Positions 2,733 through 48,146 of a stretch of DNA of 64,000 nucleotides are shown one piece after another. The notes below the pieces were generated by a model. The model saw nothing but the letters and a program-made list of their open reading frames with translations, had not been told where the DNA came from and ran no database searches. The DNA lies in the NCBI GenBank assembly GCA_947644695.1, contig CANSAJ010000003.1:8424-72423 (forward strand), in the 5' to 3' direction. Every line of letters begins with the position of its first letter. Position 1 is the stretch's first letter. Source of the stretch: an uncultured Bacillota bacterium (GTDB taxonomy: Bacteria; Bacillota_I; Bacilli_A; RF39; UBA660). The translations under genes were made by a program, and so were the position numbers.

Positions 2733-3752
2733 TTATATATCTTTTTTGTTTTTTAATTTATTAATTTTTATATATTTTTTAATTTTAGTTAATATTACTC
2801 CAGATGTTAATGTCATTAATGATACTAAGATATAATTTATAATAGAATTTTGTGTTATTATTTTTAGGTTTAGAATATTACTTAAAAAATGTATTATAAC
2901 AATAAAGAATGGGTGGATTATATAAATTAATAAGGATAAATATCTCAAGTCTTTGTTAGTTTTGTTATTTGTATTAATTAATCTAAATAAATAGAACATT
3001 AGTGGTATTAACATTATATACATGCTAGTATGTTTCATTAGATTAAAATGGTATACAATAAATCCTTCTATTAGCATTAGTACTAAGAATAAAATTGTAA
3101 ATAGTAAGTCTTTTTTCCTATTTTGTTTTGTATTATGTATCTTTAAATAATATCCCATATATAAAAATATAGGCATGTAGAATATTCCATTTCTCGTATA
3201 GTCAAATATTTTAAATATTATTTCATAGAATTTGTTTATTATAAAAATATTATTTATTAAATAGTAATAACTGTCACCAAATAACCCAATTATATAAAGT
3301 AATATAATTAATGGAATTAATAGTTTTTTATTTATTTTTTTTATTAAAAAATAAGTTAACCATAATCCTAAAATTAAACCTGGAAAATACCATAGATGAT
3401 ACATTGTACCTTCTATAAAAATTAATTTTAAAATTCCGAATAATCCTAAGTTATTAAAGTGATGTGCATATATGTTAATTGGTAAATAAAATAACATACT
3501 TATCAAATATATTAATAAGATTTTTTTTGTATATTTGATTAGCGTTTCTTTATTTTCTATAGATTTAGTTAATATAAAATATCCAGTTATTATTAGAAAA
3601 AATGGTACTCCTATTCTACAAAAGACTTGAGTAAATAAAAAATCTAGTGGTTCGCTAATCGATGATAAAGGAAAGACATGTATACCTATTATAAGGAAAG
3701 CTATTATAAATCTATATGTGTCTAAATTTAAATTATTTATTATTTTTTTCAT
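2733..3752 (-). CDS. Acyltransferase family 3 (OatA-like) membrane protein
   Basis: About 10 TM segments; N-terminal RIGVPFFLIITGYF motif characteristic of the acyltransferase-3 family. Confidence 0.65.
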   Translation of the reverse strand: MKKIINNLNLDTYRFIIAFLIIGIHVFPLSSISEPLDFLFTQVFCRIGVPFFLIITGYFILTKSIENKETLIKYTKKILLIYLISMLFYLPINIYAHHFNNLGLFGILKLIFIEGTMYHLWYFPGLILGLWLTYFLIKKINKKLLIPLIILLYIIGLFGDSYYYLINNIFIINKFYEIIFKIFDYTRNGIFYMPIFLYMGYYLKIHNTKQNRKKDLLFTILFLVLMLIEGFIVYHFNLMKHTSMYIMLIPLMFYLFRLINTNNKTNKDLRYLSLLIYIIHPFFIVIIHFLSNILNLKIITQNSIINYILVSLMTLTSGVILTKIKKYIKINKLKNKKDI

Positions 3753-3989: not shown

Positions 3990-5874
3990 TCTAACTTTAA
4001 GAGCTTCTACAATTTATAATAATCGAGTAGAGAAAACTTTTCATTTAAAGTATAATGAATACTTTTCCCCCTCACACCACCAAGCATATCGTTCGGTACT
4101 TGGCGGTTTAATTTGTAATAATATGTACTTTTAAATAGTGGTCTAGTAAATTTACTAGACCTCTTTTATTTAATCTTTCTTTAGATATTGCTTCTTTTAG
4201 TACCCATGTATTTCCAATAAAATATAAACCTCTTCTACAATTTGCTGTCATAAAAGCATTGTAATGGTCTATTCCTAGTTTTCTTAAAGATGTATATCTT
4301 TTCTTGATTTTCTTCCATTGTTTCCATATGACTACTCGTATCTTTCTTCTAATTCTTGCATCTAATTTATCAAGAAGTACTTTCATATCTGCAATTCTAA
4401 AATAGTTAACCCATCCATATATTAAATATTTTAATTCTTCTAATCTTTGGTTTAATGATATTCCTCTTTTCCTAAGAAGAATTTGATTTAATTTATAGAT
4501 TAATTTCTTTACTGATTTAATATGTGGCTTAGGTCTCCATATATTTTGATTAATCTTTTTGTAAAATCCAAAGCCTAAATATTTAATATCTTTTGGTCTT
4601 GCCACTTTACTCTTTTCTACATTTATTCTTAGTCCTAATTTCTTAGTTATAAATGTACTTACACTTTCCATCACTCTATTCGCTGCTTTCTCACTTTTTA
4701 CCATGATTAAACAATCATCTGCATACCTTACAAAATTTAAACCTCTTGCTTCCAATTCTTTATCTAATTCATTTAACATAATATTAGATAACAATGGACT
4801 TAAGTTTCCTCCTTGTGGTGTTCCTTTATGTGTTTTCTGTACAACTCCATCTTCCATTACTCCACTTTGCAAAAACTTTCTTATTAATGATATTACATCA
4901 TTATCTTTGATTGTTCTATGTATAATTGCCATTAATTTATCTTGGTTTACCTCATCAAAGAAAGATTGCAAATCTATGTCTACTATCCAGTCGTACCCAT
5001 CGTTAAAACATTCAAGCGCTTTTATAACTGCCTGTTCACAACTTCTTCCTAGTCTAAATCCATAAGAATTATTTGAAAATTGTTCCTCATAAATAGGTGT
5101 TAATACTTCTACTATTGCTTGTTGTATTACTCTATCTATTACACATGGTATTCCTAGTTTTCTCATTTTTCCATCTTCTTTTGGTATATAGACTCTTCTT
5201 ACAGGAAGTGGCTTATATTTTCTATTTCTTATTAATGTAAATATTTCTTCTTTATGTTCTTTGATATATGAAAATATTTCTTCAGTAGTTACTCCATCTA
5301 TACCACTTGCTCCTTTATTTTTGTAAACTTGCTTATATGCTTTGTTTAAATTATCTTTGGAAAGTATTTTCTCTAAAAGTTCCATATCTGTTCCTCTCTT
5401 TCTATTATCGTACATAGATTAACGTCTTTTATAGGATTTATTCTGACTTTTAATCTATTCCAGTATTAGTAATTAGAACTACAAATTATTCAGTCCTTCC
5501 TAATTTCTTAGTACTACGACCTCTGCTGACTTCTCATAGTTAACCTTTTTCGAACACAGATTTTCTCGTACTCCTCGTCGTTTCCCTTTCTATGTCTATG
5601 AGACCTCCCGCGGTAAGACATATATCTTTCCTCAATTAGCCACTTATTTTACTGCATAAAGTTACGAGTATCTATTTGGACTTTAGTTTGTATTGCAACC
5701 TTATCCGTTTACACAGCCTTATAATAAGTTTCTGTTCGTTAGCCCTCGATTTTGTTTCGCACTTCCTTTAGCCCCAAGCCTCACGACTGATGCTTTGCGT
5801 TTCCCTAACACTTCGCTGATACCTACGCGTGTAGTGGACTTTCACCACCTAGATATATGCCATGCACGGCACAC
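3990..5874 (-). mobile_element. Group II intron (3' boundary approximate)
   Basis: Minus-strand sense begins GTGTGCCGTGCATGG... at 5874 (GUGYG 5' consensus), followed by domain-I-like sequence (GTGCGAAACAAAATCGAGGGCTAACGAACAG). RT/maturase ORF lies in domain IV. Directly after the ORF stop there is a domain-V-like hairpin CCGCCAAGTACCGAACGATATGCTTGGTGG (about 4075-4107) and a G-rich domain-VI-like tail. Confidence 0.85.
4108..5415 (-). CDS. Group II intron reverse transcriptase/maturase (intron-encoded protein)
   Basis: 435 aa; RT domains 0-7 including a YADD active-site motif (RYADDCLIM), a maturase X domain and a C-terminal basic region; N-terminus LLEKILSKDNLNKAYKQVYKNKGASGIDGVT is typical of LtrA-like IEPs. 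Confidence 0.95.
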   Translation of the reverse strand: MYDNRKRGTDMELLEKILSKDNLNKAYKQVYKNKGASGIDGVTTEEIFSYIKEHKEEIFTLIRNRKYKPLPVRRVYIPKEDGKMRKLGIPCVIDRVIQQAIVEVLTPIYEEQFSNNSYGFRLGRSCEQAVIKALECFNDGYDWIVDIDLQSFFDEVNQDKLMAIIHRTIKDNDVISLIRKFLQSGVMEDGVVQKTHKGTPQGGNLSPLLSNIMLNELDKELEARGLNFVRYADDCLIMVKSEKAANRVMESVSTFITKKLGLRINVEKSKVARPKDIKYLGFGFYKKINQNIWRPKPHIKSVKKLIYKLNQILLRKRGISLNQRLEELKYLIYGWVNYFRIADMKVLLDKLDARIRRKIRVVIWKQWKKIKKRYTSLRKLGIDHYNAFMTANCRRGLYFIGNTWVLKEAISKERLNKRGLVNLLDHYLKVHIITN

Positions 5875-41881: not shown

Positions 41882-42103
41882 TTATTGAGTTTTTGACTTA
41901 AAAAAATAAGAAGAAATGTCTTTTATATCTATATCTAGTATATTACAAGCTCTCGTGATTTCACTTTGTCTAAAATCAATTTTATTATTAAGCTTTAAAC
42001 TAATAGTTCTTTCTGAAAGTCCCATTTTACTTGAAAATACTGAGTTGCTATCTAATTTTTCTTTTATTCTTCCAAGTAATTTTGAATAATCATACTCTTT
42101 CAT
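41882..42103 (-). CDS. Cro-like XRE-family HTH regulator (divergent from the repressor)
   Basis: SKMGLSERTISLKLNNK HTH; divergently transcribed from the cI-like gene across the operator region. Confidence 0.6.
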   Translation of the reverse strand: MKEYDYSKLLGRIKEKLDSNSVFSSKMGLSERTISLKLNNKIDFRQSEITRACNILDIDIKDISSYFFKSKTQ

Positions 42104-42122
42104 TTTTTCCTCCTTTCAGCTT

Positions 42123-42236
42123 AAACTCAATCTGCTTGAGTAATTAAAGTATAGCATATCAAAAAATACCTGTCAACAAGAAAACTCAATTATTTTGAAT
42201 TTTCTTGTTGAACTTTTGTTTACGACCTGTTATAAT
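42123..42236. promoter_or_regulatory. Lysogeny switch region: operator palindromes + PRM-like promoter
   Basis: Palindrome ACTCAAtctgcTTGAGT (42124-42140). A 12-bp inverted repeat TCAACAAGAAAA ... TTTTCTTGTTGA (42173-42211) overlaps the -35 TTGAAC (42208-42213), which is spaced 17 nt from TATAAT (42231-42236). Half-site ACTCAA recurs. Confidence 0.55.
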
Positions 42237-42260
42237 GTACACAAAGAAAGGGGTGAACTA

Positions 42261-42662
42261 ATGAAAACATCAAATACTTCCCAAAGACTGAAAGAAATTA
42301 TGAACATAAAAGGTTTAAAACAAATTGATATTTTAAATAAAATTGAACCAATTTGTAAAAAGTATGAAGTAAAAATGGGAAGTAATGATTTGAGTCAATA
42401 TGTAACTGGAAAAGTGGAACCTTCTCAAAAAAAATTGAGTGTTCTTGCTGAAGCCTTAGAAACTAATGAAGTATGGCTTATGGGTTATGATGTTACAATG
42501 GAACCAAATCTCAGCGAAAATAAAGAAAATACATTTGACGAATTAGAATTGTTATTTAATAAAGCAAAACCACACTTATCAGAAGATGACAAAGAGACAA
42601 TGAAGTTTCTAATGCAAAAGACTATTAATAATTACGAAAAGAGTAAAAATCAGGATAAATAA
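42261..42662 (+). CDS. cI-like XRE-family repressor (ImmR-type)
   Basis: Start taken at ATG 42261 (SD AAAGGGGTGA), not the track's 42195, which overlaps the promoter; HTH QRLKEIMNIKGLKQIDILNK; C-terminal dimerisation region. Confidence 0.7.
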   Translation: MKTSNTSQRLKEIMNIKGLKQIDILNKIEPICKKYEVKMGSNDLSQYVTGKVEPSQKKLSVLAEALETNEVWLMGYDVTMEPNLSENKENTFDELELLFNKAKPHLSEDDKETMKFLMQKTINNYEKSKNQDK

Positions 42663-42753
42663 TAATTGAAATTTTAAGTAAAGGAGTATAAAGTACTTTC
42701 ATTCGGGTATTGACTTTAATACATTTATATTATAGAATGTATATGTATTGAGC

Positions 42754-42778
42754 TTCGGTATCCCGTGTGGACCGAAGA
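42754..42778 (+). terminator. Rho-independent terminator after the repressor gene; left arm of the Abi-flanking inverted repeat
   Basis: CTTCGGTatcccgtgtggACCGAAG followed by ACTTTTTATATT. Confidence 0.55.
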
Positions 42779-42789
42779 CTTTTTATATT

Positions 42790-43749
42790 ATGAAAGATTT
42801 TAAAACAATAGATAATCAAATTGAACTTTTAAAAAATAGAGGATTAACTTTTAAAGATGAAGAAAAATCAAAAGATATTCTTATTAAAAATAATTATTAT
42901 AACATTATAAATGGGTACAAAGAACCATTTATAACCGATGGAACTAAGGATAATTTTATAACTAATACAACTTTTGAAGAAATATATGCACTATATATTT
43001 TTGATAAAAGAATAAAGGATGTTTTCTTAGAATATATTTTAAAAATTGAAAATAATTTAAGATCATTAATTGCTTACTATTTTTCTATGTTTCATGGTAA
43101 TGATAATTATTTAAAATTAGATAACTTTGATAATTTGGATAATATTTCAAATACACTTACAGAAACTAAAAGTAAAAAAATAAAATCAATTCAAGAATTA
43201 ATAGGAACTATACATAAAGAAATAGCTAAAACTATGACTTCTAAAGACTATATAAAACATTATATAATTGATTATGGTTTTGTACCACCATGGGTTTTAG
43301 TTAATATTCTTACATTTGGACAGTTAAGCAAATTTTTAGAATCAATGAAACAAAATGAAAGAATAAAAGTATCACAACACTTTAATATACTAGAAAATGA
43401 ATTAGTTCAATATACTAAATTACTGTCATATTTTAGAAACTTGTGTGCTCACGATGATAGAATTTTTAATGTCAAATTACCAAAATACTTATATATTCCT
43501 GATAATGAATTGCATATTCAATTAAATATTTCTAAAAAACAAGATATGTATTCTTCTGGTAAAAATGATTTATTTGCTTTGTTAATTACTTTAAAAATCA
43601 TGCTAAGTGAAGATGAATTTAATACTTTATATAACAAAATTTATGGAAGAATAAAAAGTTTAGAGCATAATTTATCTAGTATAAATATTAATAAAATACT
43701 AGAAAGAATGAATTTTCCTAGTAATTGGAGAGATATAAAAAAGTTCTAG
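42790..43749 (+). CDS. Abi_2 family (AbiD/AbiF-like) abortive-infection protein
   Basis: Start at M15 of the track ORF; the N-terminus MKDFKTIDNQIELLKNRGLTFKDEEKSKDILIKNNYYNIINGYKEPF matches the Abi_2 signature (...QIELLK.RGL.I.DE......L....YY.L.GY); about 320 aa as expected. Confidence 0.65.
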   Translation: MKDFKTIDNQIELLKNRGLTFKDEEKSKDILIKNNYYNIINGYKEPFITDGTKDNFITNTTFEEIYALYIFDKRIKDVFLEYILKIENNLRSLIAYYFSMFHGNDNYLKLDNFDNLDNISNTLTETKSKKIKSIQELIGTIHKEIAKTMTSKDYIKHYIIDYGFVPPWVLVNILTFGQLSKFLESMKQNERIKVSQHFNILENELVQYTKLLSYFRNLCAHDDRIFNVKLPKYLYIPDNELHIQLNISKKQDMYSSGKNDLFALLITLKIMLSEDEFNTLYNKIYGRIKSLEHNLSSININKILERMNFPSNWRDIKKF

Positions 43750-43768
43750 GTCCACACGGGATACCTAG
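43746..43768 (+). repeat. Right-arm hairpin of the Abi-flanking inverted repeat (GGTCCACACGGGATACC)
   Basis: CTAGGTccacacgggatACCTAG; its loop is the exact reverse complement of the loop of the 42754-42778 hairpin; the Abi stop codon TAG sits in its stem. Confidence 0.6.
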
Positions 43769-43857
43769 ACACTATCATTAATATTATGTAAAAATTTAGA
43801 AAAATAATACAAGAATAAGTACAGAAGTATCGTACTTTACTATGGTGAGGTGAAGAT

Positions 43858-44187
43858 ATGAATATTAAAAACTTATTATTGGAGGTTATTACTGATAAAG
43901 AACTATTAAATTATTATAACGCTACTGTTATATATGAAGATACTCCTACATCTGTTAGAGGCTGTGTATTCAATCATGATGGTGTGTATTTTATAATAAT
44001 TAACAAGAACTTATCATATTATAAAAGAAAAAAGACACTACTCCATGAATTATCTCATATTGAGTTAAGTCAGTTGTGTCAAAAAGAAAAAGATCTTTTT
44101 GCTTTTCACATAGACAAATATGAAGATGAAGCTAATAAATATTTAAAAGATTTAGAAAAAGAAATATATAATTTAGAAAAGAGGTAA
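43858..44187 (+). CDS. ImmA/IrrE-family metallopeptidase (repressor-cleaving antirepressor protease)
   Basis: 109 aa with HEXXH LLHELSHIEL; typical partner of an XRE repressor in prophage immunity regions. Confidence 0.65.
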   Translation: MNIKNLLLEVITDKELLNYYNATVIYEDTPTSVRGCVFNHDGVYFIIINKNLSYYKRKKTLLHELSHIELSQLCQKEKDLFAFHIDKYEDEANKYLKDLEKEIYNLEKR

Positions 44188-44191
44188 AACT

Positions 44192-44596
44192 TTGAGAATA
44201 ACTATAGGATATGATTTTGATAAAATGGAACCTATTAAAAATATAAAAAATATTACTATTAATGATCAAGAAAACGATATTTTAAAAAATATTATATCGA
44301 TTTTAAGTAATAATTATAATGAAAAAGATTTTAACGTTATTGCTGAAACTCGCAATTATACAACACTTAAATATAAAAATAATGATATTGCAAGAATAAA
44401 ATATACAGATAAAGCTAAATGGTTAAGTGTACTCATATTAGATAATAATTTAATAAGAAAATATGAAAATGATCCACTATTTAGTAAACAAAAAAATAAA
44501 AAGCAATTTCAATGGAAATCTGATTTTAATGAGAATAATATTAATAGTTATATTGAAATTTTAAACAAAGCATGCGAACAAATTGAAATACAATAA
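44192..44596 (+). CDS. Hypothetical protein (134 aa, TTG start)
   Basis: ORF between ImmA and int, followed by a GC-rich hairpin. Confidence 0.4.
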   Translation: MRITIGYDFDKMEPIKNIKNITINDQENDILKNIISILSNNYNEKDFNVIAETRNYTTLKYKNNDIARIKYTDKAKWLSVLILDNNLIRKYENDPLFSKQKNKKQFQWKSDFNENNINSYIEILNKACEQIEIQ

Positions 44597-44600
44597 AAAA

Positions 44601-44636
44601 AACTCCCCTACTATGCAGCAACATAGTAAGGGGCGG
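44601..44636. terminator. GC-rich hairpin (CTCCCCTACTATG...CATAGTAAGGGGCGGAG), bidirectional terminator-like
   Basis: About 11-bp stem in AT-rich surroundings, preceded by A7 (a T-run on the opposite strand). Confidence 0.45.
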
Positions 44637-44750
44637 AGTATATAATACTCCTTAAGAAAAATATCACTACACGAATAGGAAATTTTTCTATGTTTTAATT
44701 TTAGCATAGAATCAATTTCTTTTCAATAAAAGAAAGGAATGTGATTTACA

Positions 44751-45758
44751 ATGAAACGAGCAAATGGTATGGGCAGTGTATATAAACTTTCAGGAAAAAG
44801 AAGAAAACCCTACGCTGCCTCAGTTACAATAAATGGAAAGAGAGTTGTACTAGCTACCTTTCCAAAACCTAAACTAGCAATTGAATATTTAAGTAATTAC
44901 ATATGTAATCCATACGATATAGATTATTCAAAATATACAACACTTCAATTATTTGAAGAATGGTTTCCAACTTATAATAAATCCGATAGTTCAAAGAATA
45001 ATTATAAAAATGCTTTCTATCAACATTCTAAACCAGTACATAATAAAGCATTTATTGAATTGAGAAAAAAAGATATACAATATTTAGTTGATAATAGCAA
45101 TCTCAAATACACCGGAAGATCATACATAAAAATAGTCTTTTCAGCACTTTTTGAATACGCAAAGGAAAAAGAATTAGGAGTCAAAGAAAATTACGCTAGA
45201 GGCGTCAAATTAGGCGATAAGAACATATCTGTTATGCACAAATCTCTTACAGACAAAGATTTTGAAACTGTTTGTAATAATTCCGACAAAGAATTTGTTG
45301 ACATAATTATGGTTTACTTATATACCGGAGCACGGCCAAGTGAACTTTTAAAAATTACTAAAAAAAATGTTTTTTTAGAAGAAGATTATATGGTTGGCGG
45401 AATTAAAACAAAAGCAAGTAAAGACAGAATAATGCCTATTCATCCAAAAATTAAGAAAATAATTGAAAAACATTATCATAAAAATTCAATATACCTTTTT
45501 GAAAATATAAAAGGAGAACAAATAACATATAAAACTTTTGTTAAGAAATTTAAAGAAGCATTAAATACTTTAAATTTAGAAGAAGAATATAAACCACATG
45601 ATACAAGACATACATTCTCTACTAGAGCAAAATTATCTGGAATGGATGATTTATGTAGAAAATTAATTATGGGGCACGCTATTAATGATTTAACCGACAA
45701 TATTTATACTCATATACCTAAAGAAAAATTAATTGAGGAGGTGAAAAAATTAAAGTAA
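44751..45758 (+). CDS. int: Tyrosine site-specific recombinase (phage integrase)
   Basis: 335 aa; C-terminal catalytic region HDTRHTFSTRAKLSG ... LIMGHAINDLTDNIYTHIP (R, H-x-x-R, Y); the stop abuts the 23-bp att repeat. Confidence 0.85.
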   Translation: MKRANGMGSVYKLSGKRRKPYAASVTINGKRVVLATFPKPKLAIEYLSNYICNPYDIDYSKYTTLQLFEEWFPTYNKSDSSKNNYKNAFYQHSKPVHNKAFIELRKKDIQYLVDNSNLKYTGRSYIKIVFSALFEYAKEKELGVKENYARGVKLGDKNISVMHKSLTDKDFETVCNNSDKEFVDIIMVYLYTGARPSELLKITKKNVFLEEDYMVGGIKTKASKDRIMPIHPKIKKIIEKHYHKNSIYLFENIKGEQITYKTFVKKFKEALNTLNLEEEYKPHDTRHTFSTRAKLSGMDDLCRKLIMGHAINDLTDNIYTHIPKEKLIEEVKKLK

Positions 45759-45781
45759 TTTGTTAGCAACGTGTTAGCAAC
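45759..45781. repeat. Putative attR core (23-bp direct repeat copy 2)
   Basis: Identical to 5970-5992. Confidence 0.55.
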
Positions 45782-45894
45782 GTCTAAAATTTTACACGAT
45801 TTTACACGATTTTCGATATAAATGTTCGTGTATATAAATTTGACAGCAAAATAAAACAAGCCCTGTATTTATAAGGCTTGTACAAGTTTTAACT

Positions 45895-45940
45895 TGGTGG
45901 ACCGTTAGGGATTCGAACCCTAGACCCATCGATTTTTAGT
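45895..45940 (-). pseudogene. Orphan tRNA 3' fragment (T-arm + acceptor 3' strand + CCA; no 5' half)
   Basis: Minus sense ...TAGGGTTCGAATCCCTAACGGTCCACCA: a T-stem-loop GGTTCGAATCC and the acceptor 3' strand plus CCA are present, but no matching 5' acceptor strand (GGACCGT) exists nearby. This pattern is typical of a duplicated att core of a tRNA-integrating element. Confidence 0.5.
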
Positions 45941-46088
45941 CAATATCCTTTTTTAATTATCTTAATATCAAAAATTAATATTTATTTTTTATCTCCTTTG
46001 CTTTTAAAAATTGCTAGTAATATAAATAGAATTATTAATAATATAAATGGAATAATTACTTTTAGAATGAGATTGATATTTAGCATAT

Positions 46089-48146
46089 TTAATCTTTAAT
46101 TATATTTTTACTGCAAAGGTAAGTTATTAAGAAGTAGCCACCATATATAAATATTAAAACTGCGGCAGTCATTATAATTGAAATAAGCAATTTTTCATTT
46201 CCAAATGTTTCTAATATATAATTACAGAAAATAATACCAAATATAGAGTGAATTATGGCAATTAATAGTGGAAATGTGAAGAATATTCCAATTTGTTTAA
46301 ATAGTGCTTTTTTTATTAGTTTTTCATCTGCACCTATTTTTCTTAGCATTTTATATCTTTCTTTATTATCACTACTTTCTGTTAATTCTTTTAGTGCTAA
46401 TATTGCAGCACTTGATATTAAGAAAATTATTCCTAAGTATAGCCCAATAAATGTTGCCATTGCGCCTAGACCTGTGCTTGCTTCATATATAGAGATTTTT
46501 GTTATAACATCAAGCGTAGTATATTCTAAATATGGATGGTTGTTTAGTTTTAGTAAAAAGTTTTCGATTTCTTTTTTCTCTTCTTTTGTATCACCATTAT
46601 AGTCTGCGATTAATATACTTTTGTAAGCTAATAAATTTTCTAATGCTTCATCTGGTAGTACAAATATACCTTCATTAGTATGATTTGATGATATGTGTAT
46701 GAATCCATCTTTATGAACATTATATTTAGGTTTATATTCTTTACCATTTAATTTAATAGTAGTATTAAGTTTTAAAGCTTCATCTCTTATTAAAGACCAT
46801 GAGTCAAAATTAGATACCAATACATATTCGTCTTTTTTTAATGTTAATTCTTCGAATCCATATCTTTTCGCTAAGGTATTATAGTCACTTAATTTAATTA
46901 ATGTTTCTCCTGTTTTGTAAGCTAGATATGGATAGCCTTCTAACGCCTTTAAATAATAGTCTCCTAATGTCTTTTCTACTGTTATTTCTTCTGTTCTATA
47001 TATATCATATTCAAATATATCTTTTAAGTTTTTATCTATATTATAGTCTAGTTTTTCTAGTGATTCTTTTATTCCTATTTGAGTATCTTCATATTCTTCA
47101 ATTGAATGTCCAGAATTTAAATAATCTTCTTTGTTGTAAACTCTTTCTTTTTTTATTTCAATGTCTACTGGTACCAATGTTGTAAGGTTTGCGGTAATTG
47201 AGTTTTTAAGTGATATAGCACTTGATAATACACATATAGTTACAAATAACATTATTGATATAATACTCATACTTATTACAGTAGTGTTAATTTTGCTGCT
47301 TATTTGTTTTATTATAAAACTATTAAGTCCTTTATAGTAAATATTTTTTAATTTAGTGAAAACTCTTATTAATAATCCTGAGATACTAAAAAATAATAGT
47401 AGAGTACCAATTATTCCCATTAATATTGGTATAAATATATAGCTAGCTTCTGATAAAAGCTGTATTCCTGCTGTTACTAAATAATATGCTATTCCTAAAA
47501 TTATGACTGATATAATAAAAATAATAGTGCAGAATAAGGGATTTTTTAGTTTTATAGTCTCATTCTTTTTAAATCCATGTATAAGATCTATTAGTTTGCA
47601 TTTTGATATATTTATAGTATTAAAAATCATTACAATTATAAATATAATACTAAAATATATTAATGTTTTTATTGCAGCACTTTTTGAAAATATAAATGCA
47701 AATTCTGTAAGGTCTGCTTCAAACATATTTGCTACTAGAAGGCTCATGAATTGTGATAAAAATGTTCCAAGAGTAAGTCCTATTAAAAGAGAGATTAATC
47801 CTATAAAAAGTGTTTCTAACAGTAGAATTTTAGATATTTTTTGTTTACTCATTCCAAGTGTTAGATAGATTCCAAATTCTTTTTTTCTTCTTTTTATTAA
47901 AAATCTACTCGCATATATTATTAAAAATCCTAATATAAAAGATACGAAGACACTTACTCCAGATAGTATGTTATTCATTAATTTTATTATATCTTGTGTA
48001 TTTGATGATACTTGCATCATTACAGTTTGACTTTCTAAAGCATTGAATATATAGAATATTGATACTCCTAAGATAAGAGTGAAAAAATATATGGCATAAT
48101 CTTTAATACTCTTTTTTATGTTTTTTAGTGATAATTTATAGAGCAT
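46089..48146 (-). CDS. BceB-type ABC transporter permease (FtsX-like, peptide-antibiotic resistance)
   Basis: 685 aa, 10 TM segments with a large extracellular loop between TM7 and TM8; N-terminus MLYKLSLKNIKKSIKDYAIYF typical of BceB/VraG. Confidence 0.75.
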   Translation of the reverse strand: MLYKLSLKNIKKSIKDYAIYFFTLILGVSIFYIFNALESQTVMMQVSSNTQDIIKLMNNILSGVSVFVSFILGFLIIYASRFLIKRRKKEFGIYLTLGMSKQKISKILLLETLFIGLISLLIGLTLGTFLSQFMSLLVANMFEADLTEFAFIFSKSAAIKTLIYFSIIFIIVMIFNTINISKCKLIDLIHGFKKNETIKLKNPLFCTIIFIISVIILGIAYYLVTAGIQLLSEASYIFIPILMGIIGTLLLFFSISGLLIRVFTKLKNIYYKGLNSFIIKQISSKINTTVISMSIISIMLFVTICVLSSAISLKNSITANLTTLVPVDIEIKKERVYNKEDYLNSGHSIEEYEDTQIGIKESLEKLDYNIDKNLKDIFEYDIYRTEEITVEKTLGDYYLKALEGYPYLAYKTGETLIKLSDYNTLAKRYGFEELTLKKDEYVLVSNFDSWSLIRDEALKLNTTIKLNGKEYKPKYNVHKDGFIHISSNHTNEGIFVLPDEALENLLAYKSILIADYNGDTKEEKKEIENFLLKLNNHPYLEYTTLDVITKISIYEASTGLGAMATFIGLYLGIIFLISSAAILALKELTESSDNKERYKMLRKIGADEKLIKKALFKQIGIFFTFPLLIAIIHSIFGIIFCNYILETFGNEKLLISIIMTAAVLIFIYGGYFLITYLCSKNIIKD

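Follow-up and report, generated by a model that had tools for sequence, protein, structure and literature searches.

A probable type III toxin–antitoxin-like AbiD/F module with two convergent copies of a covarying hairpin RNA in a prophage of an uncultured Bacillota bacterium

A stretch of 64,000 nucleotides (nt) from an uncultured Bacillota bacterium (contig CANSAJ010000003.1 of assembly GCA_947644695.1, positions 8,424 to 72,423; hereafter, the window) carries a prophage abortive-infection gene of the Abi_2 family (abi) that is bracketed by an inverted repeat. The locus is probably, though by no means certainly, a compact type III toxin–antitoxin-like Abi module of ~1.1 kb with two convergent hairpin small RNA (sRNA) units, of which the 5′ one would also serve as an attenuator. 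This reading builds on the family membership and fold of the Abi protein, the covariation of the hairpins, the strand on which they fold and the boundaries of the module. On balance, the module would work like the AbiF type III systems, with an RNA motif that is not catalogued and a convergent two-copy layout. Its parts lie in the window as follows:

42700–43812, no single strand: conserved abi module (5′ promoter, 5′ hairpin, abi, 3′ inverted hairpin, antisense promoter-like region), delimited by inter-locus blastn
42710–42738, plus strand: sigma-70-like promoter TTGACT-17-TAGAAT, from a consensus scan (10/12 matches)
42744–42791, plus strand: 5′ hairpin unit, then ACTTTTT (T-run 42780–42784); covariance-model match, 64.4 bits, E = 2.5e-12
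42790–43749, plus strand: abi gene, 319 amino acids (aa), AbiD/F-family HEPN RNase as judged by Pfam, PADLOC, phmmer and AlphaFold2 (AF2)/Foldseek
43731–43779, minus strand: 3′ hairpin unit, then AACTTTTTT (T-run 43742–43737); covariance-model match, 57.8 bits, E = 1e-10
43783–43812, minus strand: promoter-like region of the 3′ unit, with CATAAT (43788–43783), a weak −35-like TTGTAT (43812–43807) and an 18-nt spacer, by sequence inspection

The initial annotation of this DNA had described two 17-mers in inverse orientation, each within a local hairpin of differing outer stems, and this repeat proved to be real. The 17-mer GGTATCCCGTGTGGACC occupies 42757–42773 (plus strand) and, as its reverse complement, 43749–43765 (minus strand), and occurs nowhere else in the window. 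No match was obtained in 100 shuffles even at 3 mismatches, a tolerance at which the window holds no third copy either. The inverted repeat stretches to 28 nt with 89% complementarity (42757–42784/43738–43765), including a T-run on each side, so that both T-runs are part of the repeat and are directed into the abi gene. The outer stems are unlike, CTTCGGT/ACCGAAG on the left (42753–42777) and CTAGGT/ACCTAG on the right (43746–43768).

The 5′ hairpin consists of a stem (42753–42759/42771–42777) with an AUC bulge, inner CC/GG pairs and a GUGU loop; it finishes 5 nt before the ATG of abi, and its local fold has an energy of −13 kcal/mol (z = −3.1). A larger fold over 42663–42795 (z = −2.9) was set aside, as it involves pairing of promoter DNA, which would be absent from the transcript. 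The stem of the 3′ hairpin lies on the minus strand at 43768–43763/43751–43746, with bulge and loop as in the 5′ copy. The abi stop codon TAG (43747–43749) lies inside this 3′ stem, and the 3′ T-run is the complement of the C-terminal Lys codons. At other loci, the stop codon (TAA or TAG) is likewise found within CCTAAG/CTTAGG stems of the 3′ copy.

The hairpins were compared over 80 loci taken from genomes that represent their species and 21 taken from viral contigs. Most of the hosts are uncultured gut Bacilli, 'Tenericutes' and Erysipelotrichaceae known as metagenome-assembled genomes. Where the Abi protein is at least ~44% identical to that of the window, the motif is found 15–45 nt ahead of the ATG in forward orientation and again, inverted, at the stop codon or immediately behind it. 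The consensus is a 7–8 bp stem, a 3-nt bulge (AUC, or UAC/UUC in some lineages), two C-G pairs, a GUGU loop, GAC and 5–8 U. A covariance model built from 55 distinct hairpin instances gave 92 matches in 642 kb, nearly all of them on the plus strand just upstream of abi or on the minus strand at its end, and the paired plus/minus pattern was found in 38 loci (about 38 species-level genomes). In the window, the model matched only the two copies with filters off, the next best score being 17 bits. By contrast, no flanking inverted repeat above shuffled controls was detected by an ungapped upstream-versus-downstream search in the loci whose Abi is at most 42% identical or in phiC2. A metagenome scan with RGTATCCCGYGTGGACY returned mostly chance matches in G+C-rich soil contigs; among 80 loci from that scan searched with the covariance model, 13 passed.

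The paired positions of the hairpin vary in a compensatory manner. With the structure specified by hand, two-sided changes were present in 7/8 outer pairs and 91% of the alignment cells were paired; none of 500 shuffles attained the observed pairing or covariation, and sliding the pairing partners lowered the pairing to 25–54%. In the model-fitted alignment of 85 distinct rows, 8/8 outer pairs showed compensatory changes, with 92% pairing. The outer helix was recovered independently by RNAalifold, which placed the inner 2-bp helix one register over; the register of this inner helix is ambiguous, with either GUGU or CGUGU as the loop.

The strand on which each copy folds was read from the balance of G·U and A·C cells. 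The 5′ copies contained 31 G·U against 1 A·C. For the 3′ copies, the minus-strand reading gave 15 G·U and no more than 2 genuine A·C; one sub-family, aligned one nucleotide out of register, accounts for 14 additional A·C cells. As these 15 G·U pairs would be A·C mismatches on the sense strand of abi, selection acts on the 3′ copy as a folded RNA of the opposite, antisense strand. The same orientation is supported by the T-run, which follows the 3′ hairpin on the minus strand alone. These comparisons show each hairpin copy to fold in its own orientation.

Promoter-like boxes accompany both units. In 38 of the 42 distinct 5′ copies the −10 box ends 13–14 nt before the stem, and in 40 of the 42 a −35-like hexamer is present at the matching distance; transcription of the 5′ unit in the window would start at ~42745. 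At the 3′ side, a −10-like hexamer (CATAAT/TATAAT-like) ends 8–9 nt before the stem in 27 of the 38 distinct copies, against counts of about 1–3 copies at most other offsets and of 6–10 (the highest being 10) at a few, and a conserved but non-canonical tGTATtttt block takes the place of the −35 box. Each hairpin begins ~7 nt past the start predicted from its own promoter-like boxes. The order of promoter, hairpin, T-run and ATG that characterizes AbiF-type systems is present in the sequence, with covariation in ~40 distinct 5′ copies.

One locus (L029) departs from this arrangement. It has no detectable 5′ copy, and its 3′ copy (3415–3463, minus strand) lacks a T-run; a third hairpin unit (3604–3652, plus strand), with a promoter TTGACT-17-TATCAT, lies 180 nt downstream of abi and before an 82-aa membrane-like open reading frame (ORF).

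The hairpins could be nothing but intrinsic terminators, with no function for the RNA itself. They would shield a toxic gene against read-through from either side: transcripts started at the repressor promoter would be halted by the left hairpin, and antisense transcripts by the right one. Such insulation is plausible, and G+C-rich stems are indeed followed by 5–6 T directed inward: by inspection, both copies have a 7-bp stem with 4–5 G-C pairs and then (A)ACTTTTT(T). Neither is listed by a consensus terminator scan, whose loop limit is probably too small for the apical part; a terminator role is in any case included in the type III-like reading. However, the bulge and loop are conserved across Abi proteins of 44–75% identity while the stem sequence is free to change. 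The initial annotation had argued against plain terminators from the conservation of loops rather than stems in the two copies, and the argument gains from about 38 genomes in which the stems covary and the bulge and loop persist. Moreover, the hairpins follow closely on conserved promoter-like boxes of their own, the motif is no general terminator of these genomes (2 matches in 64 kb, and elsewhere at abi flanks), and the 5′ and 3′ cores co-vary within loci. We therefore regard terminators alone as an unlikely explanation.

The relation between the two cores was followed across the loci. They are identical in the window and in two other loci (L020 and L031), whereas one to three differences are found in most loci, e.g. 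a GUGU loop against GCGU or ACGU, and in some clades the cores are only about 10% identical, each still folding locally. Cores of the same locus are nonetheless more alike than cores of different loci (0.72 against 0.65; 0 of 10000 permutations), and oddities of a lineage are common to both copies, such as an unpaired A (L016 group), CCUAYGCGGG (L043) or U-A in place of C-G (L036). The pattern is compatible with a common reader of both RNAs, but not with selection for mutual complementarity, which is often broken while the hairpins are kept. Long-range pairing between the 5′ and 3′ arms, as first proposed, is not borne out, as the local folds are what is retained when the cores diverge.

A second alternative holds that the 3′ unit is a cis-antisense RNA of type I-like action that triggers decay of the abi mRNA, that the 5′ hairpin is only an attenuator, and that neither binds protein. 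Type I systems of Firmicutes often have a convergent antisense RNA at the 3′ end of the toxin gene. In par (Fst/RNA II) and other Gram-positive type I loci, a convergent small RNA terminates inside the toxin gene or where it finishes, at the 3′ end, and acts by base-pairing with the toxin mRNA, the toxin being a small membrane peptide. The convergent orientation of the 3′ unit, its folding on the antisense strand and its overlap with the last codons and stop fit such a role, and by construction the unit is complementary to the last ~30 nt of the abi mRNA. In contrast to par, the convergent RNA here is the same sequence as the 5′ leader hairpin and not its complement. Complementarity to the mRNA also needs no conservation, and yet the 3′ core shows conservation and, from locus to locus, varies in step with its 5′ counterpart; this conservation argues for an additional reader of the 3′ core. 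In addition, the hairpin also occurs as solo copies, for which there is no abi mRNA as a pairing partner, and homologous systems act by RNA–protein binding (PMC12373285). A purely cis-antisense role is thus quite improbable in our judgement.

The extent of the conserved unit bears on a third alternative, in which the repeats are DNA-level sites, i.e. terminal inverted repeats, inversion sites, or arms whose pairing in the mRNA circularizes or loops out the gene. The perfect 17-bp repeat, extended to 28 bp, around a single gene would suit such a function, and so would the presence of the module at different intergenic sites in related prophages. When the window was compared by blastn with ~35 loci, the high-scoring segment pairs started at 42680–42750 and ended at 43787–43821, regardless of the neighbouring genes. 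The DNA homology between loci continues ~45 nt outside each repeat; therefore, the conserved unit is promoter-hairpin-abi-hairpin-promoter, and the repeats are internal to it. Furthermore, the module has neither a transposase nor an invertase associated with it and always faces the same way relative to the outer promoters; the compensatory stem changes and the G·U asymmetry indicate selection on single-strand folding. The outer stems differ systematically and the cores differ in many loci, so mutual complementarity is not conserved. Terminal inverted repeats, an invertible segment and mRNA cyclization were all rejected on the grounds of module boundaries, constant orientation and non-identical cores, and a DNA-level role appears highly improbable. 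With it goes the suggestion of the initial annotation that the repeats mark the borders of a cassette or are a footprint of mobility or inversion; its suggestion of a recognition site can be kept for RNA and not for DNA.

The identity of the Abi protein, which had been assigned to Abi_2 from the letters only, was confirmed by a hidden Markov model search. Pfam Abi_2 (PF07751) matched over profile positions 2–184 of 184 with 158.9 bits against a cut-off of 25.6 (E = 2e-46), and the AbiD model of PADLOC matched the abi ORF with E = 3e-63. The R-phi-xxx-H motif of HEPN proteins is present as RNLCAH (residues 216–221) and is invariant in 37 homologues. A phmmer search of the PDB returned a single relative, 8VZ6 ('PbAbiF dimer bound to ncRNA', ncRNA being non-coding RNA; E = 6e-15), in which R216 and H221 align to the catalytic R210 and H215 of PbAbiF; mutation of these two residues inactivates PbAbiF (PMC12373285). 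The AF2 model has a mean confidence (pLDDT) of 92.8, and its sole significant Foldseek match is 8VZ6_A (E = 1e-9, template-modelling scores 0.74/0.79), with Cas13d (EsCas13d) in second place as a weak match. Homology and predicted fold identify the protein as an AbiD/F (Abi_2) family member and a HEPN RNase toxin.

The abi reading frame had first been started at the TTG at 42748, which reads through the hairpin. The N-termini of homologues (MKEFKTI...) place the true start at the ATG at 42790. No Shine-Dalgarno (SD) sequence lies upstream of this ATG, as had been noticed at the outset, whereas the neighbouring genes have clear ones.

Similar over-extension is frequent in databases. Many homologues at 50–75% identity bear spurious N-terminal extensions FGIPCGPKTF, RYPVWTEDF or SRVDRRLF, which are the three reading frames of one nucleotide string, CGGTATCCCGTGTGGACCGAAGACTTT, and some end in a C-terminal tail SPKSTRDT, encoded by TCCACACGGGATACC. 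On either flank of abi, conservation is therefore stronger in the nucleotide motif than in the protein, and the extensions and tails arise because gene callers read through the conserved hairpins. The artefact is systematic in the clade, affecting homologues P0001, P0008, P0012, P0018–P0035 and others.

In the type III-like reading, the two arms of the repeat would be two copies of one small structured RNA, each read in its own orientation. The 5′ copy would be transcribed from the strong promoter, and its hairpin plus U-run would end most transcripts after ~40 nt, before the SD-less ATG. From the architecture observed, with termination as predicted, an abundant sRNA (42745–42784, plus strand) and very little toxin mRNA would result. 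The 3′ copy would be expressed from its own weak, putative promoter in the abi-immA spacer on the opposite strand, and its predicted transcript (about 43776–43737, minus strand) would stop inside the last abi codons, so that a further sRNA of ~40 nt would share the core of the first. PbAbiF/AbiFr and AbiFCd/RCd22 serve as the models for the next step, in which the Abi dimer would be bound by the hairpin RNAs, one per monomer, and its HEPN RNase site blocked. A phage that shuts off host transcription or degrades the labile RNA would then free the toxin, and the infection would be aborted.

The motif was compared with those already described. RF03085 (abiF RNA) gave no match at E ≤ 10 in 42000–46200 or in the 146-nt leader and none at the gathering score (37 bits) across the whole window, while phiC2, used as a positive control, scored 37.6 bits; its consensus, CCCGCCAAGCC...GGCGGG, is unlike the hairpin described here. 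No other Rfam family matched the hairpin when the same three regions were scanned, apart from chance miRNA-like matches, and twenty distant Abi_2 loci gave no RF03085 match at the gathering score.

In ToxIN/AbiQ, an RNase toxin is inhibited by an adjacent small structured RNA that is overproduced by means of a terminator between the RNA and the toxin gene, and phages can escape these systems with RNA mimics. The proposed module would share this logic of an RNase toxin and an over-produced RNA, but the ToxN/AbiQ fold is unrelated to HEPN, and the antitoxin of those systems is a tandem of direct repeats processed by the toxin, with no convergent copy.

The AbiF of the Clostridioides difficile prophage phi027 (AbiFCd) is toxic, and the upstream ncRNA RCd22 neutralizes it in cis and in trans through direct protein binding; RCd22 contains two abiF motifs (RF03085), and most of the transcripts from its sigma-A promoter stop short of the abiF ORF (PMC12373285). 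The locus of the window resembles it as a prophage-borne Abi_2 HEPN toxin gene without its own promoter, preceded by a sigma-A promoter, a structured ncRNA and a Rho-independent terminator, all three only predicted in the window, and in having two RNA motif copies per system, the RCd22 case being described as type III TA-like RNA–protein neutralization (PMC12373285). However, the RCd22 motifs are in tandem in one upstream RNA, whereas here one copy is upstream and the other inverted at the stop codon; the hairpin is unrelated to RF03085 and the proteins are 28% identical. The gene for AbiFCd also lies in a lysis module and not, as here, in a lysogeny module, and phiC2 has no flanking inverted repeat.

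PbAbiF (with its RNA AbiFr; Zilberzwige-Tal et al. 2025, as summarized in PMC12737573 and PMC12373285) is a homodimer with one cis-encoded ncRNA per monomer, in which single-stranded bulge nucleotides block the RNase site. The catalytic R...H is aligned between the two proteins and the hairpin here has a conserved bulge as well; the proteins are, however, about 21% identical, and the RNA here is a much shorter single hairpin with copies on opposite strands at the gene ends. Lactococcal AbiD1, AbiF and AbiD belong to the same protein family and need a short upstream element with a strong promoter and a terminator for function and cloning, which is more conserved than the genes themselves (PMC11381338, PMC13064643). 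There is little abiD1 mRNA and its translation is poor; activation comes from a phage protein, which binds a structure in the initiation region of the mRNA (PMC2661086). The structured element at the translation initiation region is a shared feature, and the 5′ half of the present module fits what is described for the family (AbiFCd, PbAbiF and the lactococcal systems) point for point, but a downstream inverted copy as found here is not mentioned in the reviews of AbiD1, AbiF and AbiD (PMC11381338, PMC13064643). The switching on of translation by a phage protein binding an mRNA motif is, in turn, a feature of AbiD1. The convergent two-copy layout found no mention in the AbiF/AbiD literature covered, which did not extend to the primary PbAbiF paper.

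Several points weigh against the type III-like reading. We infer the transcription starts, the termination, the binding, the toxicity, the neutralization and the defence. The 3′ unit lacks a canonical −35 box and the consensus scan does not call a promoter there, for which reason the 3′ promoter is only a putative one. Being antisense, the sRNA of the 3′ unit would necessarily be able to pair with the end of the abi mRNA, so that an antisense (type I-like) effect is inseparable from protein binding. In four loci of one clade (L017, L021, L026 and L040) the inner helix of the 3′ copy is unlike that of the 5′ copy, so the two copies there are not strictly equivalent ligands. Finally, the failure of RF03085 to match even at E ≤ 10 and the low identity to AbiFCd and PbAbiF set this system apart from its models.

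The initial annotation had taken hairpins without an inserted gene as the mark of pure terminators, and a few such solo copies do exist. A hairpin with a −10 box at 3′-type spacing and a T-run, and with no abi by tblastn, was found at L002 7828–7876 (= L134), L003 1332–1380, L148 7403–7450 and L158 793–840. The L002/L134 unit lies between a serine recombinase and an S24 repressor in a human-gut prophage, and L003, L148 and L158 resemble it. At L154 (5635–5683), the 5′-type promoter and hairpin are kept and the gene is missing. As the conserved loop, −10 box and T-run are retained, these copies look like orphan sRNA units, unlike generic terminators. The hairpin unit is thus able to exist on its own; such copies may be what is left of former modules, or else orphan antitoxins that serve as decoys against Abi.

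In a set of phage contigs, the core CCTGGGTATCCCGTGTGGACYCAGG is part of a longer conserved element (...TCAATTNTATTTAAACAGGTAAGGTGTAAC...) without a T-run. Its copies are:

L006, 410–458, upstream of a large-terminase-like ORF
L166, 10633–10681
L178, 5488–5536
L182, 4836–4884
L189, 144–192

A broader version of the type III-like reading can be offered tentatively, and we rate it as rather doubtful. A clade of AbiD/F HEPN toxins would be controlled by the uncatalogued hairpin RNA in two convergent promoter-hairpin-terminator minigenes, which bracket the toxin gene and overlap it, with the solo copies in other prophages and phages acting as orphan antitoxin decoys that disarm this Abi system in superinfection. 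No more confidently, this version would have the stop codon and the last Lys codons built into the terminator of the antisense sRNA.

The genes around the module are those of a lysogeny module:

42261–42662, plus strand: cI/ImmR-like helix-turn-helix (HTH) repressor (HTH_3, E = 0.0016, weak; DNA similarity to a phage repressor)
43858–44187, plus strand: ImmA-like M78 metalloprotease with HELSH (Peptidase_M78, E = 2.6e-7, above cut-off)
44751–45758, plus strand: tyrosine integrase at the prophage end (Phage_integrase, E = 1.4e-21)

The repeats and the 319-aa Abi_2/AbiD protein they bracket thus stand between the cI-like repressor and the ImmA protease. The DNA of the repressor gene is similar to that of the 'CI-like repressor' of Streptococcus phage Javan94, and the weak HTH_3 match, Peptidase_M78 with HELSH and Phage_integrase occur together in the one lysogeny module, as in an ImmR/ImmA immunity pair. 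No close prophage relative was found by blastn in the INPHARED phage collection, where matches were confined to short patches, and the homologues detected by tblastn among phages and plasmids did not exceed 37% identity, with no Lactococcus record among the matches listed.

That abi is wedged between the two immunity genes, as first proposed, is supported by L012 (Candidatus Fimihabitans), where homologues of the repressor (51% identity) and of ImmA (56% identity) are direct neighbours, with the abi module placed after the latter. In L009 the module comes after an S24-type repressor, and in L045 and the P0009 loci after an HTH repressor in a decayed prophage. The module encodes Abi alone and is accompanied by no recombinase; its neighbours vary between loci, and its orientation is constant. 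From these comparisons, and from its different places in the lysogeny modules of L012 and L009 in particular, the module behaves as a moron landing in intergenic spacers of prophage lysogeny modules, in agreement with the initial annotation. The predicted 5′ terminator between immR and immA may uncouple their co-transcription.

Outside the abi module of L012, on both sides, there is a second and unrelated 17-nt inverted repeat (ACGTTACTGCGCCAACA/TGTTGGCGCAGTAACGT; 2812–2828 and about 4034–4050), the downstream copy of which is part of a terminator-like hairpin; this repeat may be a trace of module insertion. In the P0009 loci (L109–L114, about 2000–2800, from mouse-gut genomes), the abi module stands beside a metallo-beta-lactamase-fold gene with a weak Pfam match to Anti-Pycsar Apyc1, in a decayed prophage with a fragmented integrase.

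Other elements were observed in the window. A 39-bp near-perfect palindrome, TCAACAAGAAAATTCAAAATAATTGAGTTTTCTTGTTGA (42173–42211), lies between a divergent cro-like gene (DUF739, 41882–42103, minus strand) and the repressor gene, overlaps both divergent promoter-like sites and is also listed by the terminator scan; it is probably the operator of the genetic switch. A 134-aa ORF between ImmA and the integrase (44192–44596, plus strand) has no Pfam or PADLOC match; after it comes a strong hairpin (44605–44632) that has a minus-strand T-run. In an apparent prophage late region, a group II intron occupies 4108–5790 (minus strand), with Rfam matches group-II-D1D4-3 at 5618–5790 (119 bits) and D1D4-1 at 5493–5563 and a 435-aa ORF at 4108–5415 on the same strand.

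AbiF-type systems were shown to be RNA-antitoxin (type III) systems only in 2025 and are likely ancestors of Cas13. Only two of their RNA partners have been characterized so far, and Rfam holds a single motif. The locus would define a second, well-supported RNA partner for a large AbiD/F clade of gut Bacilli. Its layout, with opposite-strand copies at the gene ends and the antisense copy lying over the stop codon, is unlike that of both characterized systems. Over-long termini such as FGIPCGPKTF and SPKSTRDT in database Abi proteins can be recognized as annotation artefacts of hairpin read-through. With a size of ~1.1 kb, the module would be a compact system in which to study how a HEPN toxin recognizes RNA and how many RNA copies are needed per dimer, and it offers an opening to ask whether phages carry orphan copies as anti-defence decoys.

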